Source: an uncultured Clostridia bacterium (lineage in GTDB: Bacteria > Bacillota > Clostridia > Christensenellales > UBA1242). Taken from it: a stretch of DNA of 64,000 nucleotides. The stretch is taken from the NCBI GenBank assembly GCA_944381145.1, contig CALWJZ010000001.1, positions 65,125 to 129,124 on the forward strand, read 5' to 3'. Below the pieces are notes generated by a model. That model ran no database searches. It saw only the letters and a program-made list of their open reading frames with translations, and was not told where the DNA came from. This document shows positions 4,067-35,120 of the stretch, piece by piece. The translations under genes and the position numbers were made by a program. Positions within the stretch are counted from its first letter, which is position 1. The number at the start of each line of letters is the position of its first letter.

Positions 4067-4081
4067 ATAAAATATTTTTTG

Positions 4082-4112
4082 AAAGTTTTTATTTTACATA
4101 AAAACTTTTTTT
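4082..4112 (+). terminator. Rho-independent terminator after tRNA-Trp
   Basis: 10-bp stem AAAGTTTTTA (4082-4091) / TAAAAACTTT (4099-4108) followed by a T-run. Confidence 0.7.
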
Positions 4113-4314
4113 AACTTTATCCAAATTTATTTGTAATAATTATGCAAAAAAATAAATAAATATTCTAATATAAAAAAGTTACAAAATAATTATATTAAAA
4201 TAGTATTTTTTTGTAATTGTAATTTATTTATTATTTTTAATAAGTTTCAAAACGCATTATATAGTGATATTTTATATAACAAATTAATAATAAACTTCAA
4301 TAAAAAAACTGTAT

Positions 4315-4761
4315 TTAATATACAGTTTTATTTTTTGATATTTCGGAAGTTGCAAGTTGATCACAGCGATTATTAAATTCGTTGTCTGCATGTCCTTTTA
4401 CTTTGTGCCATGTAACTTTATGGGGTAAAGTTAACTCAATTAACTCTTTCCAAAGTTCAATGTTTTGAACTGGTTTTTTGTTTGCTGTTTTCCAATTATT
4501 TTGTATCCATGTATCGATCCAATTGCAAGTAAAAGCATTTACGACATAAGCGCTATCTGAATAAATATTCAATTCTACTGGTTCTTTTATTAATTTTAAA
4601 CCTTCTATTACTGCTGTTAATTCCATTTGATTATTGGTAGTGTTTTTTTTGTATCCACTATATTCTTTTTTGTGTTTGTTGTATATAAGTATTCCGCCAT
4701 ATCCGCCATCTCCAGGATTGCCACTACAAGCTCCATCTGTGTATAAATCAACAATCTTCAT
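4315..4761 (-). CDS. rnhA: Ribonuclease HI
   Basis: All four catalytic acidic positions of the RNase H fold look intact: 'YTDGAC', 'NNQMELTAVIEGL', 'IYSDSAYV', 'WHKVKGHADNEFNNRCDQLA'. GGAG RBS present. A hairpin at 4305-4329 overlaps the stop and is followed by a T-run on the minus strand. Confidence 0.9.
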   Translation of the reverse strand: MKIVDLYTDGACSGNPGDGGYGGILIYNKHKKEYSGYKKNTTNNQMELTAVIEGLKLIKEPVELNIYSDSAYVVNAFTCNWIDTWIQNNWKTANKKPVQNIELWKELIELTLPHKVTWHKVKGHADNEFNNRCDQLATSEISKNKTVY

Positions 4762-5043
4762 ATAAACTCCAAATTATTTTTCAAAATTTTACTCAAAAAT
4801 GAACTAAAAGTCAAATGCTATTTAATTACAATTAATTTATTTTAAATGTTTAGATAAAATCAAAATAAAAATATTTAATATTGTTTTGTGGGGGCTTTAA
4901 TAGGTTAATTTTGAATTTTTTTTATTTATTAAAAATTTTATAAATCTTACCTGTATATTTGCTTGTGTATAAAGCCAGCATATCTGCCTGTATATAGAAT
5001 GATAGAAAATTAAAAATAATTGTCATTTACTGTCGTAAATTGT

Positions 5044-5072
5044 TTGACCTAATTATCTTTTATATATATAAT
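5044..5072 (+). promoter_or_regulatory. Near-consensus sigma-A-type promoter for the giant ORF
   Basis: TTGACC (5044-5049), exactly 17 nt, TATAAT (5067-5072). This predicts a 5' UTR of about 100 nt. RBS AAGGGAG lies at 5170-5176, 7 nt before the ATG at 5184. Confidence 0.6.
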
Positions 5073-5183
5073 ATATAAGATTAATTACTTAACTTAAATA
5101 AAATAATTTTTTATGTTTAAAAATTAGTATGTCGTCAATAAAAAAACGAATTTTACAAATAATAATTTCAAGGGAGTTCTGGT

Positions 5184-8100
5184 ATGTCAAAACGTGTCAA
5201 ACCAAATTTTAGAGTAAAACATCCTTATTCTTATTTAATCAAATCTATCTTGCTTGGAATAGTAATGCTGTTTACAGGTATTTTTTCTGTGTCTATAGCA
5301 GGATTTATGAAACCAGATTCCTTGCCTGAAGATGTTGATGCTATGCAATATGATGCGATGAAGATAACTACTCACTATGAAGTAGATGATAATGTTGAAG
5401 GCATAATTAATCCAGATAATGGAATACCATATTCTTCTTATCCTGTTTTTATTGATTATGTTGGATCGGAAATATATGATGACCATGTTTCTAGCCGCCC
5501 TCCAGATAGTTCTTCATATATAAACGCTGATGTAGAGATTATTCTTCCAGATTATAGTTTTAGATATGAAGAAAAAATTCATATAGTTACGTTATATTCG
5601 GCTCTTAATAGGCCCATAATACAGTCTGTACAAAACGGAAATATTACTTGGGGAACTTCAACTGATTTTGGCTATAATGTATATTATGTTACAGAATCAG
5701 GAGAATATGTTAAATATAATCTTGACTATGAACAAAATGGTCCAAGTTATTCTACTATGTTTACCATTAGCAATGAGGATCTTTATAATAATGGTTATGT
5801 TGGTATAGTTATTAGTACAAAAGGTCTATTATTTGGTACAAGTGGAGATACTTTTATAGCGATTGATGAAGTAGCATCTTCGCAAGAGACAAAAAAAATA
5901 ATAAATGTTGAGGTTGGAAGATTGGAAACAGAAACACCTGAACCACCACCTACATTCGGACCAGCCAATTTGGGATCATATTCCGGTAATGGTACATCTG
6001 GACTTACTGGAAGAACTGTTGAGGGTGACGGAACACCAAATAAACCTTTTAAAATTTATTCATGGAATGATTTTAGATTTTTGCAATATTATTACAAAGA
6101 CGAAAGTAAATGTTACTCATTGCAGTCAGATGTTACAATTAATACAAACTCATTTAATTACTATACTTATAGTCATGGCAACTGGACGGTAAAAGGAGCA
6201 CTAAGTTATAGCTCTACACCTATTGATTTTGATGGAATCTTTTATGGTAATGGTTTCGATATTAATATTACAACCAATTCAGTTAGATACTCGTTATTCG
6301 AAAGTGTTTCATTTTATTCTATATTGAAAGATTTCAATATTATTGTATCTGCTACATATTCTACTTCTACATATTTCTATTATTCACTGCTTGTAGATGA
6401 AATTAGGGGAGGAACTTTCGAAAATATAAATATAGATTTAGGCAATAATTTTTATATTACTGCTAATTCTAGTTCAACTACACTTTCATCTAGTAGTCCA
6501 GATACAAATATTAGAGATTCTCGATCCGGTGGTATTTTTGCAAGAGCGATATCTGATGTAAATGTCTCTCGTAGTAATGTAAAAATTGTGAATTGTAATA
6601 TTATTGGAGATATAAACTTATTAACGTATGGTGGATATTCTTTTGGTACTTTTGTGGGTTATATAGACACGCATAAGGGAGTTTATATCTCGCATTCAAC
6701 ATATACTGGTACAATATTTATAAATAGAAGAACATCAAGCAATTATCAATCTTCTACAATAAAAGGAAAATATTTTTATTCTGCTACATCTGCATGTGTA
6801 GGTACAGTTCGTTCATCAACTACCCATGTTACTTTTACGCATGTAAATATTAATGCATCATTTTATTTCAAAGCTATTTCTAATTCAACAACTTATCAAT
6901 ACAAAACATATGCAAGAATTACTATTGCTGGTTTTGTAGGTGGTTGGACTGACTACTTTGATCCTAATAGTGCTAGTAGTAAGATTTCATATTCTTATTG
7001 TATGTATAACAAAGATCCAGGACAATCATATGCAGTAGGTGTTGCAAGCGGTTATACAGCTTCAACGATATTAGGTACTACTAAGACATACAAGAGACTT
7101 TATATATATCACACAACGCCATCAACTTCTTATCATACGTATAATACTGCAACGTCAAGTTTCACAAGTTATTATTTATCATATATTTATGGAACTAGCT
7201 TAACAACTTCTACAACTCAATCAACATTTAATAATACTTTCAATAGTTCAAGTAATGGAAATTCTAATGGTTGGTATTATGGAACTGATAAAAAGATATA
7301 TAAAAGGTCAATAAATGTACTAAATTTTTCTACTAAAAGTGGAAATTATACTACTGTAACTCCTGTAAATAATGTTTATAATATTAGTAACGCTAAACAA
7401 TTGAATTATATTAGTTATTTATGTAATAATAATGGTACTAGTTTTTCTGGTAAGACTATAAAATTAACAGCTGATATAGATATGCAAGGATATAATTGGG
7501 TTCCACTTTTTTGCCTTAGTAAGGCTACATTTGATGGTAATGGCTATACAATCAAAAATTTATATATCGATACACCTAGTGTTGTTGGAAAAATGTATGA
7601 TGGATGGTCTGCCTATCGAAATTACATTGGTTTTGCTGGATATTTTAGCAATTCTACTATTAAAAACCTTACATTTGAAAATAGTTTTATGTATATAAGT
7701 GATATTCCTAATTCCTTTGAATATGGATCAAGTGGTATTGGGTCAATAAGAAGTATTGGAATGATTGTAGGACGTTTGAATTCATCAAATTGCTATAATG
7801 TATATACAAAAAATTCTGGTATGTTTTTGTCAATGTATAATGGTTATAATTCTATATCATCAACTGGTGTTCCTACATCAAATTCACTTTATAATTATAT
7901 CTCACCTTGTATAGGTTATTCGCTTCAAAATTCCGATATTAGTGGAATTGTAGTAGATAATTTTCGATTAGGAAAAGATGATGCATTTGTATCTTCAACC
8001 ACATTGAGTACATATGGATTTTATGTATTTGGTGGATTAACAGGCTATGCTTCTTATACTGATTCAAAAGAAGTTGTTATATCTGATATTTCAAATATTA

Positions 8101-11100
8101 GTGGATTAGATTCTGTATATGATTTAGCGAATGGTTCTGCAATACAGAAATATATTACTGATGTAATTATTAATAATGTAAATGTTTCTAACAAAACATC
8201 AACAAATACTTCAAGAAGAATCTACAATACATATTATGAAATGTCTACTAACGGATATCAATTTGCAAATAGAACATCTACACTTAGCACTTTTTTGAGT
8301 ACAATTTTGAAAGGTGACTATGCTGATGTTTGGGGTGTATATACAAATCAAACATCATCTAGTATTCAAAATTTAATGGAAAATGCTGTAACAATCAAAT
8401 TACAGTCAAATCCTTCATGTGCACATACGAGTACTAAACCTGTTTCTGTTTCAGGTACTTGTCCTATATGTGGTTCAAGTGGAACAACTACTGAAAATAG
8501 ATGTAATTTGTGTAACGACGTAGTATCTTATAGCTATAATTATCCTTGTGGATATGATGGTAATACTTGTAATGCAAATAGTCTTTGTCCTGTTTGTAAT
8601 GTGGGTACTATGGAGCCATCTGGTACAACAGATACAGATGTGCAATATTGGGATTTATATTGTTATGGTTGTAATACACGAGTAGAAGAAGCCATTGAAT
8701 ATGCTTGTACTAATTCAAGTTGTAGTAATAGTTATTTGTCTTATGATTGTAATTGTGATAGTTCATATGCATGGAGACTAGGGAAAAGCGATACTTGGAC
8801 TATACGTAACAAAGATACAAATGAAATAGTTGGTTATTATTATCATGAATCTGGTTGTACACAAAAAAATCCATCAATTCATACAGAAGCTTATGGTGTT
8901 GAATGTCCAAATTGTGGTCAAAATGAATACGCTCCTGGTTTTACATATTGTGTTGGTTGCTATGAAGCAACAGGTGGATTGTCAATAGTTTGTGATAGTG
9001 GTTGGTGTTATAGTTGCAGAACTGGTTCTATTGAAACCTTTACAGATTATTCTTGGTATATTTATGAAGATTCTCCTATCATGTCTGTATCATCTCATAG
9101 TGGATATACTTCTCAATTATTAAGTAATAATTCTGCTTGTTGTTGCGCAAGTTGTGATACTTCATATACTGCAAATTATTCTGGCAATAATCAATTACGT
9201 GCCGTTACTGGAAGTAATCCAAGAGTCAATACAATATATTTGGTTTTGTACAAATGTGAACCAAATGCTGTTTTCTTTGATACAAAGAACAATATAGATT
9301 CTGGCCAAACTGAATTATATGATAATGGTATTTTGTCAAAAAGTACGTATAGAATACCATCAACAATTAGTTCTACTTATGGTACTAGTAATTTTATTCC
9401 AAGTAATAATAATTATCAAGAAATGTATAATACTGGATCTTTTGCTTGTTTCCCTGGAGAATCTCTTTATTTAGTAAATAATACTGGTAGTACTAGTTTA
9501 AGTCATACTATCAAGAGTAATTCATCTTCAACTACAAATCTTCTAGAACTGGAAGAATCTGATTATGCAAACTTGTCGACAAGTACTGATCCAAATGTTT
9601 ATAATCTGAAAGCATATAAATATACAGTACCATCTACATACAGTGGCAACTTTAGAAGTTCTAATGGTAACATGTTAATTGAAGTCAATGAAGGACTTAA
9701 AGAAGCATATTTTGTAGTAACTTTTGACGCTTATTCTATAAATGAAATGGACATTGTGCCAACTATTTCAAAAACTGGTAATGGAACTTTGACTAAAGTT
9801 GGAACGTATAATTTAGGAAATAATACTTATGATGGATCGCATATTTCATGGTTATATAAGATTTCTGGAATGGACAAAAACACTCAAATTACTATAACAT
9901 TTGGAAGACCAATTACAAATAGTACTTATTATATAACTCCAGGTTCGTATTCTAGTTTGAATTATGTCAGATCATATGAAAAAATTTATTATCGTGATTC
10001 TAATGAAGGTACCAAGTCAGAATTAACTCCTACATTAAGTGGAAATTCTAAAACTTTTACATTTAAACCATATCAAAATTCTAATTACACATATTGCAGT
10101 AATTTTTCTTCTGATACCAATTTATCCAGTATTGCTGAACAGGTTCCAGAAATAATAATGTCTTATACAGATTACAATAGTTCAACTGACAAATGGTTGA
10201 CAAGGGTTACAATAAATACTTCTAGTTATTACGCTTATTCTAGTAATTATACAGCTGAATCAACTATAACACCTAAGTTTAGATATTATTATAATTCGTC
10301 AACATATAGTTCTGCTACAAGTGATTTGTTTTGCTATTTAGGTAATAATGGTACTTCTTCTACATATTTCAAAATTCTTCAAAGTGATAATTACAAAGTC
10401 GGTAATTATATTTATCAAGCAAAATTAAGATATAGTACTTCAAGTGGAACAACAATATACTCAAGTACAACAGCATCTTCAAATAGTAATATTAATACAA
10501 CTAAAAATGATTTAACATTGGATTGTAGTGAATATACTTCTTCTACTGGTGGCTCTAATAGAACTAATCGAAGATATATTTCTATCAACAATATAAGTGG
10601 AGTTGATAATAAATACGAGAGAGTATTATATAATTTTAATATTACAAAACCATCTAATACAAGTGCAAAAGTATATTTTAATGGTACACAAGTAACAGGG
10701 ACTACTGCTACAGGATATTATAAATATAATACCATTTCAATTGATTTTCCTGGTACAGATGAAAGAATAAAAAATTCTTATTTTGCCGAAGTAAATTATA
10801 CCTATTCAACAACTTCTCAATCTACAACATCTTCTACTAATTATTATCTTGCATATGATAATTCTGGTTTAATTAATCAAGCAACAGGAAGTTCAAAAGG
10901 GTCAGCTCCTACTAGTAATGATTTTAGTATGAGATGGAACAATATCCCGATTATTCATAGTAACAAAGGTATTTATTCATCTGCTAATGAAAGTTGGACA
11001 CCAACTATAAAAGTAAATTTATATCGTTTTACTTGGGATCAAATTGCAAGGGCAACTAAAGATAAATACGATGATACCAATGGCGCAGCTAATATAGCAA

Positions 11101-29100: not shown

Positions 29101-32100
29101 CAAATTCAAATAATTCACTTTTAGTTTCAAATATTTATAATAGTGGAATAATTGAAGTTAAAAAAGATAATTCTGGATCAAATACATATGTAGCACCATT
29201 AATTGTGAATATGGGAACTGGCTCTGTCACTCTTAATAATGCAGTTTATTTAATTCCAGCAATAACTAGTACAGGGGATATTGATTATACTGTTGACTCA
29301 GGTATTATTGCTAACTCAAGTACAATAAATTCAGTTTCAGGTAAAAATAATTCAGAAATCATAAATATATCAAATACATTCTCTACAGATTTATGGAATT
29401 TTGTTCAAATATGGAGTGTATATTCTGATGTAAATAATGGACTTCCAGTGTTTAAACATTTCAATGATTACATTGTTAAGTTGCCTTTTGATAGTAATTA
29501 TCAATATATAAGTTCAGATAATTTACCAGATAAATACTTTACATATCAAAAACCAGAGATTTCAAAATATGTTGTTATAAGGGATACTATTTCTGGAGAA
29601 GATTATGTTATAGATATAGACACTTCGGGATTAATCATCACTGAAAATGGAATTTCAAATAATTTCATAACAATTAACGATGTTTATATCAATGATGATG
29701 GTACTATTTATATATATAAAGGTGCAACTGTAACACTTAGAGTTACTTCTGTGATTTATAGACATATAACTTCTATATCATTAAATCACAAAAATTCTGA
29801 AATAACATCGATTACAGAGAATTATACTAGAACTTCAGATGTTCATAATTCTGACGGTCAAAAATTAGGAGTTAAATTTGATATGTCTCCTAATGCAAAT
29901 ATTTTTGATATTTATGATCGTAATAGATTTGATTATTTCATTACAATAACAGAAGCTATTGATACATATGACATCTCTGCTGAAACTTCTGAAGTTACAA
30001 ATGATTCTGCTGTTAGCTTAATTGAAAACATAAGAATTTCAGAAAGTTTGGATAATAATGAAATAAGTGGAGAAAATCCAACGCTTACAAATATTCAACA
30101 TGGAAGCATTGTAAAAATAGAGTTAACATTAAATCAAAATATATTGAGTGCAGAAAATACAAATATAAGAATAGATAATTGGTTACTTGAAGTAGATAAT
30201 ACTCTTGATGATGGAAGTGGTTATAATTATTTAACTGAAGATAAAACAATAGTTAATAGTATTGCAAGTAGTCCAGATAATTATAGTTTAAATCAAAATT
30301 ATAATGTTGCTAATTATGAATCTTATAATACTGATGGTTCAAAAACAACTTATGAATATGATGTAGAAAATGGTAAATTTAATATTCAATTTGTTGCTAC
30401 TGCTGAGACAAGTGGAAATTATATAATTTCTCTTGTAAAACAATGGTTAGTTCAAATCAAATTTAGTATTAATATTGATATAGGTACAGATTATCCTATT
30501 GTATTTGTTAATGGACATGAAGTTAATTCTACTTTAGAAAATAATTCTGCTTACATATTTAATCAAAATATTTTGAGCAATGGTATGACACAGAGTTATA
30601 ATACTGAGTACTATAATTACAATGGATTAAATGCTGTTCCTACTACAAGTACACTTGATACAGGAATTTATTCATTGCTTTCTACACTTGAACAAGATTT
30701 TGAGTATAACATAGGAGAAAATCTAAAAACATTAGACTATGTTAATAATTCATTTATTGTTAAAATCTTTGTAGATAATGGTGCAAGTATAAACTTTAAT
30801 ACTTATTCCAAAGAAGTTTATACATTTACAGGCTTTACTACAAGTAATAGTCCAGTTCCTACTGAAAATGTATCAATGAATACAATAGATGTAGGTGGTG
30901 AAATTTTGGATTTACACACTTTCAGAGTTGATAATTTACAAAATTCTTATCATGGAACAAATATGGTTGTTGCAAACTATATTCCAAGTAAACATTATGT
31001 AAATACAATTGTTGATAATGGAAAAGATATAGATAGATTACAGCCTAATGGAACAGTTTCTGCTTATGCTGAAGTTCCAGCTGATCCTTATGAAACTATT
31101 ACTGGAACTAATATAACAAGTGAAGTGCGTCATGCTAGAAATTTGACAATAACTTTAACTCCAGATATTAGATATACTCTTGATAAATGTTGTGTAAGAT
31201 ATTATGTTTATAAAGATGTAGAAGATACAGATGGAAATATTACAAGAATGTATTATAATGAAGAATCTGATACTTGGACAGATGATAAATCAACAATAAA
31301 CGAAAATTATCTTCCAATGGTAAAACACTACGTATCTGGGTCACTAGCTGAAAATAGAACAACACTTGACATTGTAGAAAGTCCTTATGATGTATTGTCT
31401 AATGATATAGAAACGGGAGATATTAATTATAATTATGTTATTAATATAACTAATCTAGTTGGTAATATAGAAATTCATATTACTTACATTAGAGATTATT
31501 GGAATGATACTCCAACAAGTACAAGTTTAAGTGGTAGTGGAACATATAATGATCCTTATCAAATAACAAAAGCAAGTGATTGGGGGTACTTAGTTAATAC
31601 CTCAAATGCATCAAATAATTATTACAAAAATACTTATTTTGCTGTAATGAATGATATTGACTTTAATTCTAGATTTACACCTAGTCTTAATGAATTTAAT
31701 GGCTACATATACGGAAATGGATTTGTATTTAAAAATGTTTTACTTGATGGATATTTACAATTAGGTAATAATTTTAGACATGTAAGGGATATTTCGGATA
31801 CAGATACAAATTATGTACGAGGTATCGGAAATGATAGTTACTTCGGTTTAATAAATAATCTTCAAATTAATGGTAATATATCAGATATTACATTTGACAA
31901 TTTACAAATTTTAGGCAGTATAAGTAATTCATTAGATAGCGAATATTCTGCAATAATAGGATTAATTGCTAAAAACGAAGGTACTATTACAAATATTATT
32001 ATAAATAACAATTCAAAAATTGAAGTTTTATCTAACGATGAATTAAATTCTACAAGCAATAAGTTTGTATCAAATTTAGGTGCAATTTCAGGAACTAATA

Positions 32101-35006
32101 ATGGTACTATAAGAAATTCTATTAATAATTCCGAAATTGTATACAATTTTGATGAATCATCAATTTCTAGAGAATTATATTACATTTCTGGTATTGCTGG
32201 ATTTAATAATGAAAATGCTTCGATTATTAATACTATAAATAATGGTAATGTATCTTATATTATTAACGGTCTAGTTAATAATACAACAAAAAATTTGCAA
32301 GGTATTTCTTTCAATGCTGAATCAAGTTTGATGTATAATGTAATAAATAATGGTAATATAACAGGAATTTCAAATACTTCAGGTATTACATGTGATAATT
32401 TGGGAACGTTAATTAATGCTTATAATACTGGTATAATTTCTGGTGGAACTACAAGTGGAATATCTGAAAATTTACTTGCTAATTCAATAACTAGAAATGT
32501 ATTCAATATTGGAACTGCTGATAGAATGACATATTCTCATATTGAAGAGTCTGCAATTATTGAAAATGCTTATTATTTATCAGATATAGGCTCAGGTAAT
32601 GGTTTTGGTCTAAATTCTGATCAATTCAAAGATCAAAATCAATTTGTAGAATTTGATTTTGATAGCGATTGGTATATGGGAGATAGTTATCCAAAACTAA
32701 GATTTGAAAATACTACTGGTTACTTTACGCTTGGAATCAATGATTATAGTAGTAATATAACTTCCAAAGATACAGGACTTTGGATTGAAAGTAGTAGTTT
32801 AAATACTATTACACTTGAGAGTTTATATAATAATGCATTAGATGTTTATGTAATTGATAGTTCAGATAAATTAGCATGGTTAAGTAGAATTACTTCTTTT
32901 GAAAATTCAGAAATTAGTGGAAAAACTTTTGTAATCGCTAGTGAAAATCCTATTGATATGTCAGGTAAGTATTTTACTCCAATTAATAGTGCATATAGCG
33001 ACGTTAATAATATTAACATTATAGGAATTGGTAAAAATAGTAGCGATATAGTTTCAAGTGACTTACTTGAAGAATCTGATGTTGAGAATGTTACAATTAC
33101 AAATCTAACAATCAGTTCAGAAAATCAATGGTACTGCACAGAAAAATTACAATCATCATTTATTGCTATGTCAACTAATTCATTAATCAAAGGTATTAAT
33201 ATTGAAAAAACCTTAATTAATGCTTACAATGATAGTAGTTCAATTGTAGGAATAGCAAATAATTCTAAAATTATTAATTGTAATTATATAAGCGGAAATA
33301 TTGCTTCTTATGGAATAGCAAATGAGACTCAAAATGATATCATTTCTTCTGGTATAGTAAATACTTTGAATAATTCTAAGTTATATGGTAGCTCAGTAAC
33401 TGGATACAATTCTGAAGGTATTTTGCATGATACGTTTGAATTTGGCACAGATTTAGGTGGAAGTTTAACTGCATTAAATAATTATGTTAGTACTAGTGGA
33501 TTATTTGGCAGATTAAATTCCGGAGAAAATTCAATAGTACACGAAAATTATTTCAACGGAATTATGTATAGCTTTGACTTTATCCAAAAAGTTTCTGGCT
33601 TAGGAAATAATTTAATTTCAATTGTTCAAAATAACTATGTCAAAGGTCAATTTAATTTATATCAATCAGATACAGAAGTATCTGGACTTGTGAATAGTAT
33701 TGATGTTAATGGACAATTAGATTATAATTATTCAGCAAGTGAATTTGTGGCAAAGCGTAATACAATTTCTAGCATTGTAAATAGTATAAATGCTGGATTT
33801 AATGGAAGCATTAATAAAAATTACTATTTGGTTGATAATTTGTCAGATCCTAAAATAGGTCAAACAATAACATCAAAAGTTAATAATTCTAATTCATATG
33901 TGATTACAGATGAAAATATCAAAGTAATTTCTTCTACTGAATTACGAAATCAAGTTCATTTCAAAGCAGATAGTACTTGGAATTTTGATGATATTTGGAT
34001 ATATATCAATGATGTTAACTGGAATTATCCGGTTTTGAGGTCAATATATGGATATGATACTTCAGATATTGAAATAACCATTTATAATCCAGTTGAATAT
34101 GATAATATTTCTAATCAATTAGGGACATTAAATATTGACGGAAATGAAATTATTACTAAAGATAGTGAAAATAACATTGTTTCTATTTATGGTAATATTG
34201 AAAATTCTACAGAATTTGAATATACTACAGAACTAAAATTTACTTATTCAGTTATGACTAATGATATATCAAATGCATATGTTTCAAATACAACAACTGG
34301 TTTAATTACCAGTACATTATTTGGAAAAGTTGATAAAGCTGGATCAGAAGTAGATGGTAATATTCTTCTAGAAGATGAGACTTATTATACTGAATATGCT
34401 GATTCTTGTGACAATGCAGATATAATTATTACTGAGACAATAACAGAATTGAATTATGGATTAATCATAACATTTAATGTTCGAGAATTTAATGTAACAG
34501 TAAATGCAACACTTACTGCAGATGAAGGAACCGATGGTGTTCAAGATACTGATTTTGTAACAATTTTGTTAGTACATAAGGACAAAAACGGTGTTGTTGA
34601 TTATTCATATTCTGTTAATTTGAGAAATGGTCAATCTTATACTTTTGCAAACATATTTAATGGTAATTATGATGTCGAAAGCAATGTAAGTGACTTTACA
34701 GTTACTACAGATGAGTATGGTAGTTATGAAATTTACATATTTTATCCAATATTCTATTTAAATGATACTGATAATACAAATATCACAATGGCAAAAAATG
34801 TTTCATATAATCCAACACTTATAGAGGAATATAAAATGCCAGAGTATAATACTTATGACAATATTTCATCAATAAATAATGTTAACTGTGAAGAAAATTC
34901 ATTAGGGTCATTTAAATTAGATACTATTACAAGAGATGTTGAATTTAATATAACTATCAACAAACCGTTGGAATATTGGCTTCATTCAACTGCTTCAAAT
35001 ATGTAA
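5184..35006 (+). CDS. Giant (9,940 aa) N-terminally anchored, S/T/N/Y-rich surface protein with multiple GLUG-like beta-helix cassettes
   Basis: The frame stays open for 29,823 nt in AT-rich DNA. All other listed ORFs over the same span are 95 aa or shorter. It has a strong RBS, a basic N-terminus plus hydrophobic segment 'SILLGIVMLFTGIFSVSIAGF' (about nt 5238-5306), recurrent cassette motifs (listed below) and a strong terminator about 20 nt after the TAA. Confidence 0.9.
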   Translation: MSKRVKPNFRVKHPYSYLIKSILLGIVMLFTGIFSVSIAGFMKPDSLPEDVDAMQYDAMKITTHYEVDDNVEGIINPDNGIPYSSYPVFIDYVGSEIYDDHVSSRPPDSSSYINADVEIILPDYSFRYEEKIHIVTLYSALNRPIIQSVQNGNITWGTSTDFGYNVYYVTESGEYVKYNLDYEQNGPSYSTMFTISNEDLYNNGYVGIVISTKGLLFGTSGDTFIAIDEVASSQETKKIINVEVGRLETETPEPPPTFGPANLGSYSGNGTSGLTGRTVEGDGTPNKPFKIYSWNDFRFLQYYYKDESKCYSLQSDVTINTNSFNYYTYSHGNWTVKGALSYSSTPIDFDGIFYGNGFDINITTNSVRYSLFESVSFYSILKDFNIIVSATYSTSTYFYYSLLVDEIRGGTFENINIDLGNNFYITANSSSTTLSSSSPDTNIRDSRSGGIFARAISDVNVSRSNVKIVNCNIIGDINLLTYGGYSFGTFVGYIDTHKGVYISHSTYTGTIFINRRTSSNYQSSTIKGKYFYSATSACVGTVRSSTTHVTFTHVNINASFYFKAISNSTTYQYKTYARITIAGFVGGWTDYFDPNSASSKISYSYCMYNKDPGQSYAVGVASGYTASTILGTTKTYKRLYIYHTTPSTSYHTYNTATSSFTSYYLSYIYGTSLTTSTTQSTFNNTFNSSSNGNSNGWYYGTDKKIYKRSINVLNFSTKSGNYTTVTPVNNVYNISNAKQLNYISYLCNNNGTSFSGKTIKLTADIDMQGYNWVPLFCLSKATFDGNGYTIKNLYIDTPSVVGKMYDGWSAYRNYIGFAGYFSNSTIKNLTFENSFMYISDIPNSFEYGSSGIGSIRSIGMIVGRLNSSNCYNVYTKNSGMFLSMYNGYNSISSTGVPTSNSLYNYISPCIGYSLQNSDISGIVVDNFRLGKDDAFVSSTTLSTYGFYVFGGLTGYASYTDSKEVVISDISNISGLDSVYDLANGSAIQKYITDVIINNVNVSNKTSTNTSRRIYNTYYEMSTNGYQFANRTSTLSTFLSTILKGDYADVWGVYTNQTSSSIQNLMENAVTIKLQSNPSCAHTSTKPVSVSGTCPICGSSGTTTENRCNLCNDVVSYSYNYPCGYDGNTCNANSLCPVCNVGTMEPSGTTDTDVQYWDLYCYGCNTRVEEAIEYACTNSSCSNSYLSYDCNCDSSYAWRLGKSDTWTIRNKDTNEIVGYYYHESGCTQKNPSIHTEAYGVECPNCGQNEYAPGFTYCVGCYEATGGLSIVCDSGWCYSCRTGSIETFTDYSWYIYEDSPIMSVSSHSGYTSQLLSNNSACCCASCDTSYTANYSGNNQLRAVTGSNPRVNTIYLVLYKCEPNAVFFDTKNNIDSGQTELYDNGILSKSTYRIPSTISSTYGTSNFIPSNNNYQEMYNTGSFACFPGESLYLVNNTGSTSLSHTIKSNSSSTTNLLELEESDYANLSTSTDPNVYNLKAYKYTVPSTYSGNFRSSNGNMLIEVNEGLKEAYFVVTFDAYSINEMDIVPTISKTGNGTLTKVGTYNLGNNTYDGSHISWLYKISGMDKNTQITITFGRPITNSTYYITPGSYSSLNYVRSYEKIYYRDSNEGTKSELTPTLSGNSKTFTFKPYQNSNYTYCSNFSSDTNLSSIAEQVPEIIMSYTDYNSSTDKWLTRVTINTSSYYAYSSNYTAESTITPKFRYYYNSSTYSSATSDLFCYLGNNGTSSTYFKILQSDNYKVGNYIYQAKLRYSTSSGTTIYSSTTASSNSNINTTKNDLTLDCSEYTSSTGGSNRTNRRYISINNISGVDNKYERVLYNFNITKPSNTSAKVYFNGTQVTGTTATGYYKYNTISIDFPGTDERIKNSYFAEVNYTYSTTSQSTTSSTNYYLAYDNSGLINQATGSSKGSAPTSNDFSMRWNNIPIIHSNKGIYSSANESWTPTIKVNLYRFTWDQIARATKDKYDDTNGAANIANALEWGRFLITQSSSSVSTYVLTNDIDFSPTNASFTSGGTTYHYDNEYIMNPSKSYTFSKVLDGQNHKFINIVALYGNTLEFGNALDSSYNGQSSILFNTYNSNTISDLYIYNPTIYYNLEASESVGMIFGRISTGANIHNFGIYTDSNHPIIVRGGSKFSFITLYHSGNSTLYNISMDICADFGVNENSTKNLVVSAIDTINNGPCYLKNSYFIMNSINSGKVQNISSTYKSTYSTININQSNNKIENVYVVSTNSNNNVTSYKKTINTNSGTVSNLYYLSNSADGGFGINLTETQFQTQNSFVGFPFGSVWVFDKSSTNLNSYVDSYNQFNRGYPLLVTSGMTLATIENFEFYLNGQKVTATTPTGNKVYISEDTNSNTITMMYNGDTNSSGDEPTWTLPNTIASISRQSISITLDKYINSRVYLQRVDYYNGSTTQTILAGQYGSFGSSSSQSTQSFTPRVNSNNTIRVYFTTPTINFRTNSALNISNAFTTNLTSSVFYTGYSNYYFLTDPLEFNITENREAIKISKIKFNTTTLQPFSTTSGNYITKSSSNYTFNSDKSVSISNFTSNLNIEITEVYVKVLTSSDSTNIPITIHTPGNSNVYNHSNNLYYLPYTSNNYSYEIKVTDRDNTNKIGSLKICNTTYYSSTTSYGSNVLQDGTNTQNSYLTIKYDTTNSKNSMYFNNQLASNTIPQKNLLKFAYDNSGLSNGSVLISQSKIQSTYNIVVRLGTIGNAPDIYNDIKLSYNNTYSSFNSSTNSTYNTSYQATATNLPINTNISLNLGFYNGSSVTKLSKASVDNNNYAPYLIDGKYYRMYWTTGVRNSSSSYITNSYTYTQSTTNTHYVNVYLVEMLTTKFLLYDAGIYNAPMYSSLYSVHGARASHTINIGYNTSASSSGSNTINQLSSLQNNNYVYYTDYNANASYQLTFDNSFEVGSQTYNLSELFQISYVKFNNVTQSLSNNSVSKNITSNSTFSPYIQLKTTQVGVYIVNPALQFSNSDANYLSNLIPWISFYTCSSGDSTHNRVNLSTYPNAQSGSQFQRLATWSGSSLNANANIYVTGTSNKVATISIKPTGTENNAFANLTDNYVYVVTTIYGNYFEITRGDKDTTTNESYDKNILVSLTSTNLGIKTQTKGTIDGRNQIISIHGHTLVKETSEDNNYSTIAFTYAPFVTLNFSSETINHSVQASNSIKTAVSNISVSAVMDNNPNVVINPFKSNNPEWTYDLTATQTSPEVNLVVTARLTIKNGYFYNGIKINNIEFGPDVETPGTQGITISLNGNTLTIVVTLNKQQYNQTDNNVLSNINPIFEEIKTYGPGSDATKGTSNIELVGRGTLKIFDYYGSNKNQLLITSNTSGSNMPIQNSTLNVYYYSQLEIVLTSATNFVWQYYKVNSFEKRNTSYANGQVTINSSTSGISSNNLGTVSNASQFTIYVEYVSKIKVVSSIQNDANYLSNHDISNNGIESLVSSIEATDNNITSKSVTFTLTPDENFKVMFYEIIVFKTTNPTSLNKSTNYVSYQLISSGSKEHSISYTNMQVSNSDFDSNFKTTLNTDKTELTIDFVYTRDGKSYSESNFFGATAYIEVIPYMIETPKIITLNNTTNSAGVKFAVDTTQVRYVRGSFTGNISSPNIELFYRSTGKTTATGTTANGYTTFDFGKVEASTKMVVYNDTVNHYDTIEISTNGTDWYTVYDKFVDGESTSTLTLDFVADNHLSFTNLSNNYYLDNLVASSTTNIISGMNAYIPVVANKTYSIYSFMENYGFKVHVYDNNFQQISVSAEISAGNGIDYNVGSTGAYIGLTFIRSSSASSSSANLQELKNNFNIGFQIYTSGSADIDFYSPTEIYVGSDSNIKLESADGVGVRLVTKTDSYVNEISTSASNGTDYLRNDISEINGATNAFYVGSRKYYQFNPKYDIDINVVSSNATLNADIINSIVSDISHSSLLNSNNGKYFSKSNSLNPTANDFEFNYSNINLPIGYEFVSLSLVGQNDNTYVSSYYTESTSLSGYFDHEEKDNSETFTVKLTIKEVEYEYTFGHNCNNSSCPECLQGHLNVYTSLANSNSSSVVSTTGQPKINVAQLIVKASSNATVSDNSTIAPTSISSNIPKAVYNGGSMYSNIDQIKKTTITLGYFSYTYVEAISSNPNEIFIGKWDIIDSTENGNNNVSTYAYYNWQGNSDTKTFGMANGEYVEHYIDRNLDKLSFDSNYTVNIRHQFFSTYKIYLKAFINNYINSTSLVENASVIEHSNTISASNTEIYNIKDVNDNIIGNINVVISGDYTKGTESNIPYIRLIAGNNVTITYTDTSEYHAINQGKVTGSNLHYGSGSTVVDEIILSEDNTTIQFNNRSGTSGYDNNEINSNNWLEGYNPTSNGTITYTLSNTGSTTSYSSSNLTFETYFDTYHKIYFDRINATPSDGILATGEISITENEDSANSSNSDNSSGTTLGQNYIILYVKEGNSFKLSAEDGSNSSDGLYAKDKVYSISQLINGSFVINGIYEIDSSKFKSDSYNTYYQTIIQPTTYNTEGLYSTESIDVVSSLSQDLYYTAFYASAMQMQIEYDLLSDNINENFVVKFDNSTNEILLGTDGNYGKVSVWSNFDCTVSAPLHTDGYIIVGSNGNFVSTPNLYFKYDGSGENVYNSTYAFSKMQYYTGTNISGNCEFVDLVSTETSANSKIYLSDSVSYDTKFKDNVNSNHTNHSAIKILLSKQYDVNIIYRIRTSVDDNYANINIRNNAYVYLGTNTLPTASNYSNSFNNYNNDENSYSYFTRRFTYNTDILLSAYVPTNNVYLPDTGGITGNFRIVRISRELQFDLGETINHDGFANATLNFTVTSDTAGIYYIDIVQVLKLDTYAPEREYISLTGYNNRGSHIGATIEFENADGKQIYDGFTIYSHNDSTSTLTGKYVDKYDTVTIKPIFEEGFEANIVENSQFGFQNIENLSSNGDGSYNFVAIINHVNSESSSNAIKLFTIEKKVYYDMYYGICDKDGNLYTSSSLPEGITLSSLFAQGAKTIVTNDNIISNSNPTTYITGYILSDTPVEGYNNITTVNRYIGYFGNIEFTVETNVVTGGYQFRKFVIDGQNELYDPAITHNITGFNHNGLTNKGANNYTGVIELVDNTAVVNTDTIALSAYFVYTYAITIDVRSSDAQDIDLGGSDFNTLFGTNEFLKNGLIYNKQYIVEYGDSITQSISALIKPRFSSNGNYIKGYMYYTLAKNSNSNITTNRSGDTLNITIGNVISSESISIIYHPILCISLNPVISGKGTITTEFSNTSFDVNSYTNWNNNNSNIGVSYTSTSRMYSNGNTKSTQNIEPVQTPAIFEKTYQDSTTTYVYVVYGGSGASGLKYTTTATPYIENADNIESSERYIPHELYSNGITKHYQIEVSTGVFVDYEELADGVNNNTLVDSSLRENYYSNNLLEITDENNQNILPVVNSFEIGGSFVREYTIEINTHLSDYNTHPSSNIYIVVNGVEYLIETSNEEGDYYYKNVHALNDLNDSSSNENEITNIIVEWDDDKYEFIYDQVDLINNNSTVSSYQTLGASNTIRNSDENIVAYANALPIGTELFNDKYSRTFNFVEKRNVTLTVNPEYLNADLQPNIKIEQLISDPNGVNVEGGSNKFKPDSLTDGNYVGTNISVDNIETHNNSISATVQASNYEITLYAEDISQASSYKFNGFIINGVLNDNVTVDGIYYKLNVAIPSDNLGTTYNIVADYTLDTTNKDIINIKGNGYFEFGYSTANTASEAVQNYTKFNDTKYADVINEITKDVVALENNNVNYLVIKAYPDNYSKLDSVSAMYPDATDLDFSLGFDTDNATFVDYLYDQNNNLFVYSVKDYGPSYDYMQVNTEITLVFTSDTWREHTEEITTSTITKNSISKTGYHVTTPQQLAYLASNSTILESSNTIIYIDANLDLSSYLWLPIENFAGQIISEKYSITGINVVGQQNIVLESNIPGTVVFTNVYTTNKGYSSNPTKQYYVYTQDSSMGLFGSTNGATIEGLNIGNFNGTYYNSKNVYNGSIIGNATNTTILDVNLTSNINYTSISSTVTSSNYYYSLFVGATNGYNVIKNCISTANYSSSVSGANINVSFIIGNSNCSSAVISTDNGMQTGDYISNVSLTSNSSNIRNAKNLAGIISNQTAISNIYADNIYINLSGDNSASTNVICNNINNSNIFKYDTIYSNNFYSSSESGDLFSIDRVSNYDNNRWNNSNQNNRNLRISSTLYESSLNVNAHVSGTESNPTIIPISSKDQLISNLNAINSDLSYVELRLTNNIDFGGDVWKTIDLPNGYTFNGAGYTISNIVLNEYNNLIDSKSLFGINNGIIKNLYLQDIYMLVGAMATYNPSNYAIIANENNGEIFSISVRGTIDVNINNSENNVVYIGGLIGTNNSNDLYEIELIGEINVGSFSLNTTSLKFVGGLVGYMNNGSLNKAHSSVVINTYGNSNVINTASKFGGLVGKHTSLIIKDSYFGNYENSEYLAGINEYEKTNNSMAYVISGEGTNLDVQSFYSSANFYIKSANGLSSGNINSNYAYMLNTTYSSLPSNITSITDENLKNQNSLVGFDFENIWYYDSSDYLYPKLIGNKNTHDLKVTLTVEGIDHVDSENIINVGTITNSKNYEQIIYGTKYENNHTNNSIDYYVQALHDDTISSGYTIDINANENYHIVAVILDGITIRSSNFRNVPVTSYEDLDLFEIINSGAFSNIEKTYANTNEHTLRIVFSKNFYYYGTGINGSTSNSSINEFGQITYTNEYGQTVVTSTSVNDKNNRLSDNTNYYNNRTSDTNTWTLSSSTQNFYYKNTSGQSAPNSANSTVTFTFNAKSVVGDINSYIGVRLIGWVYIPYGSLMTFDQAKTSSIIKYNDNGTVISIEANGEASSVIQYIDALSNTNLTSITLNNGKTTTRYISSSSITITSDALSEGYYYPYVEYVYTSSVVNTLHYHTHNENCYNDDGELTCNDDLTHSFDYGGSCTECINGYISINGFVYHVINNKVTYNDTDYLVSNNQVNIDGTIYNVYNNIQISYGSDFNTKEKTITPGDFVSDGKSIIIEIDEEREGSRIGVIARRFYDENTNSINIHYYVVENNLIVDAYYISEGNKISFNNEFINDLNGLYFLVNSEVENNEYVINLYFELNEKTAGEYAFYMVEKLYDVTLDITDVYKTSETSIVLFRNSDYTLSSTVVSIKNNNGIIQYMLGNSGTYVNLDETGVSNKVNVLGLSLKVDISINNELVHIVSQMPNNYYPRIVSTPIEKYRLTDESDSIKVTNILVGDDLDNKDYSGVKYTTYQDISTDGIRTKGYLSYDLNFNTTTYKSSMTYYYDYGILGPNDEKMVITLNMKKDNYSYFDQLNVTTKIPSYYSKYLSGSSSESMYYNNSKPLNYTDSELLTLLSNFQFATTDSNITSGEDGLTRSTAFTINNPYKLAWLSHILNNDINATYQVNGIDYYFKNAYYKISSNLDMSNKFWLPIPEFSGVMFSNNTATDIGSINNLFIELLSENVEDNVSFNVENKSDSNYVGFISKGVNAQFIGLNFENAYVNTDISVYTGILNGLSNNCYFDRINIANTEITQIDTSNTTDNLISLGAISGKANYMFVVNQSEIVHVKFNANHNNVSATIGFSDYFGEIYNTYSYVERGNELIISNPTLRFINSLNAIIKNCVHHVYSGVNDNDKLFNNNDISTYKDMNYIIVDNSATTQDSTAISKNSVIESNLSNLDFDRIWQINDSNTENIGYVSLKKSVFDMRTSSISLATESATDVGSKYNPYLIQSVDDFILFVNNMNSNSNNNISSYYKLTTDINLTGKYIYPIEIFNANLDGDNHIISNFYIYSDQGIELNGTTHYDTSLILTNNGNLSNLFIKDFYIVGSNAVNESTTAGFVARNNGIIENISFVGDIISNATYTSGVLGYNLSTNESMFGTINTVISDGIILGTYYTAGVVGFSDTYSKNDILANYSTILGYKNSAGVIANAQTTGVISNMYNVGKLMFGDDGSGTQSLSGVINSNSNNSLLVSNIYNSGIIEVKKDNSGSNTYVAPLIVNMGTGSVTLNNAVYLIPAITSTGDIDYTVDSGIIANSSTINSVSGKNNSEIINISNTFSTDLWNFVQIWSVYSDVNNGLPVFKHFNDYIVKLPFDSNYQYISSDNLPDKYFTYQKPEISKYVVIRDTISGEDYVIDIDTSGLIITENGISNNFITINDVYINDDGTIYIYKGATVTLRVTSVIYRHITSISLNHKNSEITSITENYTRTSDVHNSDGQKLGVKFDMSPNANIFDIYDRNRFDYFITITEAIDTYDISAETSEVTNDSAVSLIENIRISESLDNNEISGENPTLTNIQHGSIVKIELTLNQNILSAENTNIRIDNWLLEVDNTLDDGSGYNYLTEDKTIVNSIASSPDNYSLNQNYNVANYESYNTDGSKTTYEYDVENGKFNIQFVATAETSGNYIISLVKQWLVQIKFSINIDIGTDYPIVFVNGHEVNSTLENNSAYIFNQNILSNGMTQSYNTEYYNYNGLNAVPTTSTLDTGIYSLLSTLEQDFEYNIGENLKTLDYVNNSFIVKIFVDNGASINFNTYSKEVYTFTGFTTSNSPVPTENVSMNTIDVGGEILDLHTFRVDNLQNSYHGTNMVVANYIPSKHYVNTIVDNGKDIDRLQPNGTVSAYAEVPADPYETITGTNITSEVRHARNLTITLTPDIRYTLDKCCVRYYVYKDVEDTDGNITRMYYNEESDTWTDDKSTINENYLPMVKHYVSGSLAENRTTLDIVESPYDVLSNDIETGDINYNYVINITNLVGNIEIHITYIRDYWNDTPTSTSLSGSGTYNDPYQITKASDWGYLVNTSNASNNYYKNTYFAVMNDIDFNSRFTPSLNEFNGYIYGNGFVFKNVLLDGYLQLGNNFRHVRDISDTDTNYVRGIGNDSYFGLINNLQINGNISDITFDNLQILGSISNSLDSEYSAIIGLIAKNEGTITNIIINNNSKIEVLSNDELNSTSNKFVSNLGAISGTNNGTIRNSINNSEIVYNFDESSISRELYYISGIAGFNNENASIINTINNGNVSYIINGLVNNTTKNLQGISFNAESSLMYNVINNGNITGISNTSGITCDNLGTLINAYNTGIISGGTTSGISENLLANSITRNVFNIGTADRMTYSHIEESAIIENAYYLSDIGSGNGFGLNSDQFKDQNQFVEFDFDSDWYMGDSYPKLRFENTTGYFTLGINDYSSNITSKDTGLWIESSSLNTITLESLYNNALDVYVIDSSDKLAWLSRITSFENSEISGKTFVIASENPIDMSGKYFTPINSAYSDVNNINIIGIGKNSSDIVSSDLLEESDVENVTITNLTISSENQWYCTEKLQSSFIAMSTNSLIKGINIEKTLINAYNDSSSIVGIANNSKIINCNYISGNIASYGIANETQNDIISSGIVNTLNNSKLYGSSVTGYNSEGILHDTFEFGTDLGGSLTALNNYVSTSGLFGRLNSGENSIVHENYFNGIMYSFDFIQKVSGLGNNLISIVQNNYVKGQFNLYQSDTEVSGLVNSIDVNGQLDYNYSASEFVAKRNTISSIVNSINAGFNGSINKNYYLVDNLSDPKIGQTITSKVNNSNSYVITDENIKVISSTELRNQVHFKADSTWNFDDIWIYINDVNWNYPVLRSIYGYDTSDIEITIYNPVEYDNISNQLGTLNIDGNEIITKDSENNIVSIYGNIENSTEFEYTTELKFTYSVMTNDISNAYVSNTTTGLITSTLFGKVDKAGSEVDGNILLEDETYYTEYADSCDNADIIITETITELNYGLIITFNVREFNVTVNATLTADEGTDGVQDTDFVTILLVHKDKNGVVDYSYSVNLRNGQSYTFANIFNGNYDVESNVSDFTVTTDEYGSYEIYIFYPIFYLNDTDNTNITMAKNVSYNPTLIEEYKMPEYNTYDNISSINNVNCEENSLGSFKLDTITRDVEFNITINKPLEYWLHSTASNM
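6031..7320 (+). other. Giant ORF cassette A (beta-helix-like; approximate bounds)
   Basis: N-cap-like 'GTPNKPFKIYSWNDFRFLQYY..SLQSDVTIN..FDGIFYGNGFDINI'. Rung-like 'SGGIFARAISDVNVSRSNVKIVNCNIIGDI' and 'GGYSFGTFVGY'. Confidence 0.5.
7366..8400 (+). other. Giant ORF cassette B (beta-helix-like; approximate bounds)
   Basis: N-cap 'VYNISNAKQLNYISYLCNNNGTSFSGKTIKLTADIDMQGYNWVPL..ATFDGNGYTIKNLYI'. Closing 'GDYADVWGVY'. Confidence 0.6.
8418..9158 (+). other. Giant ORF Cys-rich region with about eight CxxC motifs
   Basis: CPICG-x10-CNLCN; CPVCN-x21-CYGCN; CPNCG-x11-CVGCY; CDSGWCYSCR; CCCASCD. Cys is otherwise rare in this protein. Confidence 0.8.
11025..12125 (+). other. Giant ORF cassette C (beta-helix-like; approximate bounds)
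   Basis: N-cap 'ALEWGRFL..STYVLTNDIDFSP..KVLDGQNHKFINIVAL'. C-cap 'TETQFQTQNSFVGFPFGSVWVFD..NRGYPLLV'. Confidence 0.55.
22737..23790 (+). other. Giant ORF cassette D (beta-helix-like; approximate bounds)
   Basis: N-cap 'YHVTTPQQLAYLASNS..TIIYIDANLDLSSYLWLPIENFAGQI'. Confidence 0.55.
23811..24855 (+). other. Giant ORF cassette E (clearest GLUG-like cassette)
   Basis: N-cap 'NPTIIPISSKDQLISNLN..LRLTNNIDFGGDVWKTIDLPNGYTFNGAGYTISNIVL'. Rungs 'YIGGLIGTNN', 'FVGGLVGYMNNGSL', 'FGGLVGKH'. C-cap 'TDENLKNQNSLVGFDFENIWYYDSSDYLYPKLI'. Confidence 0.65.
27310..28310 (+). other. Giant ORF cassette F (beta-helix-like; approximate bounds)
   Basis: N-cap 'AFTINNPYKLAWLSHILNN..YYKISSNLDMSNKFWLPIPEFSGVMF'. 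C-cap 'SNLSNLDFDRIWQINDS..GYVSLK'. Confidence 0.55.
28350..29465 (+). other. Giant ORF cassette G (beta-helix-like; approximate bounds)
   Basis: N-cap 'YNPYLIQSVDDFILFVNNMNS..YYKLTTDINLTGKYIYPIEIFNANLDGDNHIISNFYI'. Rungs 'TAGFVARNNGIIENISFVGDI', 'YTAGVVGF'. C-cap 'DLWNFVQIWSVYSDVNNGLPVFKHF'. Confidence 0.6.
31527..32705 (+). other. Giant ORF cassette H (beta-helix-like; approximate bounds)
   Basis: N-cap 'YNDPYQITKASDWGYLVN..YFAVMNDIDFNSRFTPSLNEFNGYIYGNGFVFKNVLL'. C-cap 'NSDQFKDQNQFVEFDFDSDWYMGDSYPKLRF'. Confidence 0.6.
32840..34050 (+). other. Giant ORF cassette I (beta-helix-like; approximate bounds)
   Basis: N-cap 'YVIDSSDKLAWLSRITS..SGKTFVIASENPIDMSGKYFTPIN'. C-cap 'STELRNQVHFKADSTWNFDDIWIYINDVNWNYPVLRSI'. 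Confidence 0.55.
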
Positions 35007-35084: not shown

Positions 35085-35120
35085 GTAAAAAAACACTCAA
35101 AAATATTGAGTGTTTTTTTT
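35085..35120 (-). terminator. Terminator of the convergent ABC operon (bidirectional shape)
   Basis: ACACTCAA (35093-35100) / TTGAGTGT (35106-35113), flanked by an A-run upstream and a T-run downstream. It abuts the permease stop codon at 35119-35121. Confidence 0.7.

Follow-up and report, generated by a model that had tools for sequence, protein, structure and literature searches.

GLUG-type rungs are known from the immunoglobulin A1 proteases (IgA1P) of S. pneumoniae and G. haemolysans, in which one compact beta-helix of such rungs, forming the N-terminal domain (NTD), stands beside a zinc-metalloprotease domain and is accompanied by G5 and LPXTG elements. The NTD beta-helix of the pneumococcal enzyme (residues 781-1070) contacts the Fab portion of IgA1 and shifts by about 10 Å, thereby gating the active site (PMC7695701). 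A stand-alone GLUG beta-helix is represented by PDB entry 3N6Z, the 'putative immunoglobulin A1 protease' BACOVA_03286 of Bacteroides ovatus, and a GLUG protein from infant stool activates NF-kB, an effect that is still unexplained (PMC8480279); docking on IgA1 (PMC7695701) and this NF-kB activation are the only functional precedents for the domain. The Pfam families Glug (PF07581) and Peptidase_M26_N (PF05342) each model pieces of the domain and not its entire cap-rungs-cap unit. Here, we describe a 29.8-kb gene in a stretch of 64,000 nucleotides (the window) of contig CALWJZ010000001.1 from an uncultured Clostridia bacterium, whose giant product carries nine diverged domain copies, referred to below as cassettes A to I, that very probably belong to this family.

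The nine cassettes and their shared grammar

The giant gene is one open reading frame (ORF; 5184..35006, + strand) that encodes 9,940 amino acids (aa) without an internal stop and contains all nine cassettes in frame. A Shine-Dalgarno-like AAGGGAG (5170-5176) lies 8 nt upstream of its ATG. The DNA has a G+C content of about 27%, and the protein is rich in N, S, T and Y (Asn+Ser+Thr 35%, Tyr 8%). A preliminary description of the window, made from the letters and their ORFs, had placed nine related segments here and had grouped them into four adjacent pairs (A-B, D-E, F-G, H-I) with C as a singleton. Both the positions and this layout proved correct, since a profile built solely from external relatives scores positive at exactly these nine places, within a few tens of bases. 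The cassettes are as follows, with the segment of the preliminary description given last.

6012..7337, + strand: cassette A, aa 277-718; profile-aligned aa 278-669; earlier segment 6031-7320 (aa 283-713)
7341..8438, + strand: cassette B, aa 720-1085; profile-aligned aa 728-1062; earlier segment 7366-8400 (aa 728-1073)
11061..12125, + strand: cassette C, singleton, aa 1960-2314; profile-aligned aa 1983-2291 (two pieces); earlier segment 11025-12125 (aa 1948-2314)
22710..23792, + strand: cassette D, aa 5843-6203; profile-aligned aa 5851-6186; earlier segment 22737-23790 (aa 5852-6203)
23793..24887, + strand: cassette E, aa 6204-6568; profile-aligned aa 6208-6560; earlier segment 23811-24855 (aa 6210-6558)
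27303..28334, + strand: cassette F, aa 7374-7717; profile-aligned aa 7380-7706 (two pieces); earlier segment 27310-28310 (aa 7376-7709)
28353..29489, + strand: cassette G, aa 7724-8102; profile-aligned aa 7729-8098; earlier segment 28350-29465 (aa 7723-8094)
31521..32735, + strand: cassette H, aa 8780-9184; profile-aligned aa 8781-9176; earlier segment 31527-32705 (aa 8782-9174)
32826..34076, + strand: cassette I, aa 9215-9631; profile-aligned aa 9220-9626; earlier segment 32840-34050 (aa 9219-9623)

Word-indexed homology searches with cassettes H and I, or with the N-terminal 2,314 aa, returned one orthologue fragment each, and the family was therefore reached only by an exhaustive profile search, in which a profile of eight window cassettes was compared with 1.84 billion representative proteins. 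This search matched 23,883 protein clusters at E values up to 1e-3 and 517 at E values up to 1e-30. Most of the matched proteins are very long and contain several matched stretches each, with many of them measuring 2,000-7,800 aa and carrying up to 21 cassettes. The external-only profile was made from 159 full-length cassettes of the 150 best relatives and includes no window sequence. It is positive at the nine places and nowhere else in the giant protein, with scores for the whole segments of 29.6-130.9 bits; the highest control values were 5.2 bits for 300 shuffles per segment, -6.7 for reversed sequences and -0.6 for 21 windows placed outside the cassettes of this protein. When each cassette, with orthologues added where available, was compared by HHalign with the external family alignment, the probabilities were 96.0-99.9% for all nine, and the negative controls did not exceed 0.83%. 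Together, the external-only profile, the control scores and HHalign confirm, at the level of sequence comparison, that the nine segments are real copies of one domain, with the weak members A and C included.

The protein consists to 35% of N, S and T, and pairwise BLAST among the cassettes is weak (best E 1e-5), so that the similarity might be taken for an artefact of a composition biased towards N, S, T, I and Y. The chance of this is negligible: none of the shuffled and reversed sequences or the 21 equally biased windows exceeds about 5 bits, whereas the real cassettes score 30-131 bits, and these controls rule such an artefact out. In addition to the low HHalign negatives, every pairwise match stays in register and pairs openings with openings and closings with closings. 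The window sequences taken alone carry less information; in a leave-one-out comparison, B, E, F, H and I are recovered at 12-30 bits, D and G are marginal, C is ambiguous, and A fails (-26 bits).

The preliminary description had ascribed to every segment a three-part grammar of an opening, a run of short rungs and a closing motif. The opening stands in all nine cassettes, rungs are recognisable in B, E, G and I only, and the closing motif is clear in six. The opening cap consists of a strand, a helix and the pattern [DN]-[IL]-[DN]-[LFM]...W/F-x-P-[IL]...F-x-G-x-[FL]-x-G-x-[GN]-[YFH]-x-I-x-N-[LIV]; it can be aligned throughout, with substitutions, and is the part that HHalign recognises in each cassette. 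For the closing cap (K-x-Q-x-x-F...[FW]-[DN]-F-x-x-x-W...YP-x-L), the strict pattern has six matches in 9,940 aa, one closing each of C, E, F, G, H and I, and neither pattern nor alignment finds this motif in A and D. The consensus of the external cassettes opens with G-S-G-T-x-x-N-PY-x-I...L-x-x-DIDL...W-x-PIG...F-x-G-x-FDGNGH-x-I-x-NL, continues with repeated Y-V-GGLVG-Y...G-x-I-x-N-C-Y rungs, and ends with K-Q-Q-x-T-F...WDF-x-x-VW...YP-x-L, which follows the grammar of the preliminary description. The repeated rungs of the Glug type measure about 26-28 aa and contain G-G-[LIV]-[VIA]-G. A hidden Markov model (HMM) of the rung, built from these external cassettes and applied at a threshold of 5 bits, finds three rungs in E, two in B, one each in G and I, and none in A, C, D, F and H, compared with a mean of 4.4 in external cassettes, 0.009 in shuffles and none in non-cassette sequence. 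Only W and G occupy near-invariant columns of the cassette alignment. The name-giving GLUG rungs thus appear, by this count, to be largely eroded in the giant protein.

The cassettes differ considerably in how much of the domain they preserve (bits refer to the external-only profile over the whole segment, percentages to the HHalign probability against the external family alignment). H is the best overall match, with both caps clear (130.9 bits; 99.9%), and G is matched over its full length (112.0 bits; 99.8% over 310 columns). A full-length match is also found for I, with an insertion in the opening (78.9 bits; 99.6%), a cassette that is weak against its siblings in pairwise HHalign comparison. 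The rungs are best preserved in E (110.5 bits; three times GGL[IV]G), and B combines a clear opening cap and two GLUG-like rungs with a degenerate closing motif, DYADVW (73.8 bits; 99.3%). Both caps are clear in C, around an eroded middle (46.3 bits; 96.4%); its closing motif reads FPFGSVW...YPLL, and in this closing part it resembles H at E 1e-5 in pairwise BLAST. F has opening and closing caps and a short, eroded middle (44.5 bits; 96.0%). In D, which abuts E, the opening cap is present and the closing motif is missing (29.6 bits; 98.1%). A is the weakest member, with an opening cap, eroded rungs and no closing motif (32.6 bits, with its shuffles reaching at most -6.8; 96.8%).

Family membership and predicted fold

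The seven external relatives that were scanned with Pfam all carry significant Glug matches (E 1e-7 to 1e-65), and three of the seven also match Peptidase_M26_N; their accessory domains are of extracellular types (Big_2, Ig_3, He_PIG, dockerin). The external cassette consensus itself has seven Glug matches (E 3e-45), with the Glug repeats spanning the rungs, and its residues 53-125, i.e. the end of the opening (F-x-G-x-FDGNGH) plus the first rungs, match positions 181-250 of Peptidase_M26_N. A joint profile of window and external cassettes was then searched against the sequences of the PDB. It matches 3N6Z (E 6.7e-35, profile positions 4-279), the IgA1 protease of S. pneumoniae (6XJA/6XJB/7JGJ; E 7.6e-27, chain residues ~119-399) and that of G. 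haemolysans (7UVK/7UVL; E ~1e-25). The matched part of the pneumococcal enzyme corresponds to IgA1P residues ~783-1063 and hence falls within the published NTD beta-helix.

Structure prediction, which the preliminary description had proposed for every segment, succeeded for cassette E. The AlphaFold2 model made with a deep alignment (predicted local distance difference test score, pLDDT, 81.2; predicted template-modelling score, pTM, 0.85) is a beta-helix composed almost entirely of beta structure, apart from a single early helix. The top six Foldseek matches of this model are 3N6Z, 6XJA, 6XJB, 7UVL, 7UVK and 7JGJ, with a probability of 1.00 and template-modelling (TM) scores of 0.41-0.51; 3N6Z is matched at E 2.7e-5 (TM 0.48/0.51). 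Weak matches follow to the solenoid of the L. reuteri SRRP adhesin, to pectate/pectin lyases, to lyases of polysaccharide lyase family 6 (PL6) and to glycoside hydrolases. The Glug-positive relatives, the PDB matches of the joint profile and the model of E together support the family assignment, transitively, and bear out the suggestion that these are GLUG-type beta-helix modules of large surface and IgA-protease-like proteins. We consider it highly probable that the cassettes are diverged right-handed parallel beta-helices of the GLUG / IgA1-protease N-terminal type. Our literature search retrieved no papers joining GLUG and beta-helix.

Several observations weigh against this assignment. A search with the Pfam Glug model, the check suggested in the preliminary description, leaves every cassette below the gathering cut-off of 20.5 bits; among the isolated cassettes, E alone matches (11.3 bits, E 0.52) and the other eight give nothing. 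NCBIfam finds nothing in the giant protein or its cassettes, and a Pfam scan of its first two 4,000-aa pieces taken whole (aa 1-7500) finds no family. Because a profile of the window cassettes only has no match among the PDB sequences, the assignment leans on intermediate sequences. The TM-scores of the E model to 3N6Z and 6XJA are moderate (0.44-0.51), a confident model exists for E only, and 24 of the 33 rows of its alignment are canonical external cassettes, which may have driven the predicted fold. For cassette H, modelled with only the eight window cassettes as alignment, AlphaFold2 gave an unusable result (pLDDT 44). Finally, the HHalign match in A, B, C, D and F spans mainly the first 95-120 columns, and the fold of their C-terminal halves is therefore assumed.

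Possible function and origin of the giant protein

Outside the cassettes, the following features of the giant protein were delineated.

5184..5315, + strand: N-terminal signal-anchor, aa 1-44; basic N-region followed by a hydrophobic helix at about aa 15-44
8418..9155, + strand: Cys-rich module between B and C, outside the cassettes, aa 1079-1324; 28 Cys, mostly as CxxC pairs
12126..22709, + strand: longest 'dark' spacer, aa 2315-5842; no known domain
34077..35003, + strand: C-terminal region, aa 9632-9940; fold unassigned; without LPXTG or membrane helix

In a hydropathy scan, aa 15-44 form the sole hydrophobic helix of the giant protein, and the signal-anchor is 70% identical to the N-terminus of an orthologue fragment, P0152. 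Neither a C-terminal LPXTG nor a hydrophobic tail was found, LPxTG-like strings being internal only (aa 2588, 4718 and 4764), so that anchoring, if any, would be through the N-terminal helix. The sequence outside the cassettes (~6,470 aa, 65% of the protein) has no Pfam match even at E values up to 1. Spacers aa 1086-1959, 2315-5842 and 6569-7373 have no relative among PDB sequences, and no internal repeats were detected in the non-cassette sequence. A search of Pfam and of PDB sequences for relatives of the Cys-rich module gave nothing significant, merely Kazal/ovomucoid noise at E ~0.14. Two small CxxC/His clusters lie in spacers that are otherwise free of Cys, one at 17223-17249 (aa 4014-4022; GHNCNNSSCPECLQGH) and the other at 25944-26024 (aa 6921-6947; HYHTHNENC...CTEC). 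The longest spacer is colinear with its orthologue at about 31% identity, the C-terminal region is 47% identical to the C-terminus of orthologue fragment P0066, and the unclassified regions 12126-22709, 24888-27302, 29490-31520 and 34077-35003 are all colinear with orthologous sequence at 31-47% identity.

The likeliest reading of the product is a giant adhesin-like surface protein, anchored by its N-terminus and without enzymatic activity. A single membrane helix at its N-terminus would hold it on the cell with the remainder outside, the rigid beta-helix cassettes would offer ligand-binding faces in the manner of the IgA1P beta-helix docking on the IgA1 Fab, and they would be set apart by some 6,500 aa of rapidly evolving, unclassified sequence. 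The cassettes would stem from duplications too old for their order to be recovered, and their present layout is older than the divergence from the closest relatives known. The surface location is probable, although the N-terminal helix might be a signal peptide that is cleaved off, in which case the protein would be secreted or held on the cell otherwise. We give binding, as opposed to a purely structural role, an even chance by analogy with IgA1P, and the explanation as a whole, nine diverged beta-helix copies in a giant adhesin or fibril, is the one we favour with some reserve.

Beta-helices are stiff rods, and the cassettes might serve solely to stiffen or extend a long stalk without binding any specific ligand. 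The poor conservation of the GLUG rungs and of most surface positions fits such rods, as does the fact that between orthologues the cassettes (33-48% identity) are barely more conserved than the spacers (31-39%). The long retention of nine separately diverged cassettes, however, fits diversified surfaces at least equally well, and the SRRP beta-solenoid, a weak Foldseek match of E, is the binding region of an adhesin. Since the IgA1P NTD, the best-characterised homologue, also contacts a protein ligand (PMC7695701), we regard a purely structural role as rather unlikely. A giant multi-catalytic polysaccharide degrader with cassettes of the pectate-lyase or glycosidase type is improbable: the Foldseek list does go on into pectate/pectin lyases, PL6 lyases and glycoside hydrolases, and the external consensus touches Pectate_lyase_5 (E 0.013, below the cut-off), but the structural matches are weak (E >0.02, TM 0.12-0.31) and reflect the shared solenoid fold only, and Pectate_lyase_5 is, by its own description, an adhesive domain. 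Moreover, no Pfam family of the type found in carbohydrate-active enzymes matches anywhere in the protein even at E values up to 1, and no conserved acidic/basic catalytic constellation is evident in the cassette alignment.

That the beta-helices are substrate-docking or gating modules for a protease domain of an IgA1-protease-like enzyme would accord with the M26 IgA1 proteases being the closest solved homologues and with the Peptidase_M26_N domains of some relatives. Yet neither HExxH nor HxxEH occurs in the 9,940 aa, the Pfam scans of the protein reveal no Peptidase_M26_C, G5 or other peptidase family, and the C-terminal LPXTG is missing. The absence of an HExxH motif makes a protease very unlikely, and an M26-type enzyme is effectively refuted by these missing motifs and families; the prospect of a protease of this kind is remote in the extreme. 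A more far-reaching version of the adhesin-like surface protein, for which we see a small chance, is a lineage-specific, multi-specific surface fibre of about 10,000 aa, in which each of the independently diverged cassettes would have its own ligand specificity, the other 65%, for which relatives are detected only among close orthologues and which includes the 28-Cys module, would consist of undescribed domain types, and the cassettes would form a large 'eroded GLUG' subclass invisible to Pfam; if so, current annotation undercounts the domain in gut Clostridia.

Orthologous sequences were found in fragments. P0001, an NCBI protein from a Christensenellales metagenome-assembled genome (MAG), spans H, the following linker and I at 45% identity. 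P0066 is colinear with aa 7619-9939 (39% identity) and is encoded on L002, a 91.6-kb ENA scaffold with the same downstream gene order as the window; the gene upstream of it runs colinear with aa 4308-7506 (29% identity) and still has the counterparts D', E' and F'. L002 thereby retains D'-E', F', G', H' and I' colinear at 29-48% identity in the same gene neighbourhood. Its giant gene is called as two proteins of 7,529 and 2,435 aa, with the break at ~9940-10000 inside cassette F'; as a run of N marks this position, the split is an artefact of a scaffold gap. In P0152, the signal-anchor is present together with A' and B'. Cassette A is 33% identical to A' and G 41% to G', and H has orthologues in both P0001 and P0066. 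Since these fragments keep A-B, D-E, G and H-I, the cassette layout is old and predates the lineages concerned. Syntenic neighbours of the giant gene are 43-87% identical, compared with the 33-48% of cassettes and 31-39% of spacers; by these identities, the whole giant protein appears to be evolving fast.

The preliminary description had also suggested an ancient duplication of a two-cassette unit followed by extreme divergence. The divergence is borne out by pairwise identities among the nine cassettes of 13-28% over matched columns, values at which the signal is saturated. The duplication would give A, D, F and H a common 'first' ancestor and B, E, G and I a common 'second' one. In its favour, adjacent pairs occupy four of the five cassette sites, the pairs are kept in orthologues, and the first member lacks the closing motif in both A-B and D-E. 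F and H, however, both have this motif, so that a cap-less first member occurs in two of the four pairs only. The difference between same-position and cross-position similarity is -0.54 bits with phmmer, which ranks seventh among the eight possible labelings, and -0.28 score units with HHalign and orthologue-augmented profiles, which ranks fourth; neither carries a signal for a paired origin. Pair partners are no more similar than other cassettes, the strongest HHalign links (E-G-H, B-D, B-E and C-H) cut across positions, and the flanks of the pairs show no relation to one another. Head-to-tail runs of 1-21 cassettes are normal in the relatives, and the adjacency of the pairs hence needs no special explanation. 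As judged from these sequence comparisons, duplication of a pair unit is unsupported, in that the data neither favour nor exclude it, and the duplications would be very old; we hold the two-cassette origin to be unlikely. Recent duplication and an assembly artefact were likewise considered; no DNA-level repeat in the giant gene is longer than 48 nt, which means that no recent duplication took place, and both were rejected.

Genomic setting and comparison with known systems

The locus is ordinary chromosome. Upstream of the giant gene lie genes for a cysteine desulfurase, ThiI, RNase Y and tRNA-Trp; downstream follow an ABC-2 transporter pair, DedA/VTT, PadR, YgjP, an integrase, LexA, MiaA, MutL, MutS, MiaB, a class A penicillin-binding protein, RecA, RimO and FtsK. 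The class A penicillin-binding protein indicates a walled cell, and RecA has its nearest relatives, at 87-92% identity, among MAG proteins that bear the labels Clostridiales, Christensenellales or Clostridia. The ABC-2 pair (35119-38168, - strand) is convergent to the giant gene and consists of an ATPase and a permease whose 699 aa include a long N-terminal extension; its adjacency is kept in L002, where the permease is 43% identical (evolving as fast as the giant protein) and the ATPase 87%. At 4315-4761 (- strand), a 148-aa ORF reads by eye like RNase HI (MKIVDLYTDGACSGNPG...). Another ORF, of 290 aa (42285-43157, - strand), adjoins the phage-type integrase (43337-44377) and LexA; it has no Pfam match and is 51% identical to the syntenic L002 gene at 25077-25994, which carries PF26305 (CD_NTase_C). 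To judge from this relative, the 290-aa ORF may be the remnant of a CBASS-like defence gene.

A 29.8-kb gene that is blank in Pfam and NCBIfam can now be read as probably encoding a membrane-anchored giant surface protein with nine GLUG-type beta-helix domains, and among uncultured Christensenellales-like Clostridia, proteins of this kind are candidates for adhesins. Neither the domain and its fold nor its presence in giant extracellular proteins is a novelty; what is new here is an unusually eroded member, and none of the findings overturns current understanding. The motif-level Pfam models Glug and Peptidase_M26_N miss diverged copies that a domain-level cap-rungs-cap profile finds easily. 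As this profile matches 23,883 clusters, a curated whole-domain model would improve the annotation of many large extracellular proteins of bacteria from the gut and the environment. The residual interest lies in the unclassified 65% of the protein and in a whole-domain model that finds copies missed at the level of motifs.

Compared with IgA1P and its single beta-helix, the giant protein has nine copies with largely eroded GLUG rungs and lacks protease, G5 and LPXTG elements. 3N6Z is its best match in both sequence and structure and shares the N-terminal cap motif G-x-G-T-x-x-x-PY-x-I...DIDM...FDGD-x-H-x-I-x-N; it differs as a 363-aa single-domain protein from one species of Bacteroidota, and the match ends before the closing cap. 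PF07581 and PF05342 are strong in the external cassettes, whereas neither detects any cassette of the window. Giant GLUG proteins with many cassettes, known from bacteria of the gut and the environment, share with it the cassette and the very large size, and the relatives among them carry the extracellular accessory domains; examples are P0002 (7,824 aa, 19 matched stretches) and P0056 (7,338 aa, 20). These relatives are mostly long unbroken head-to-tail arrays, in which 668 of 823 start-to-start intervals measure 250-450 aa, whereas the giant protein described here carries its cassettes in runs of 2, 1, 2, 2 and 2, with 680-3,500 aa of unclassified sequence between them.

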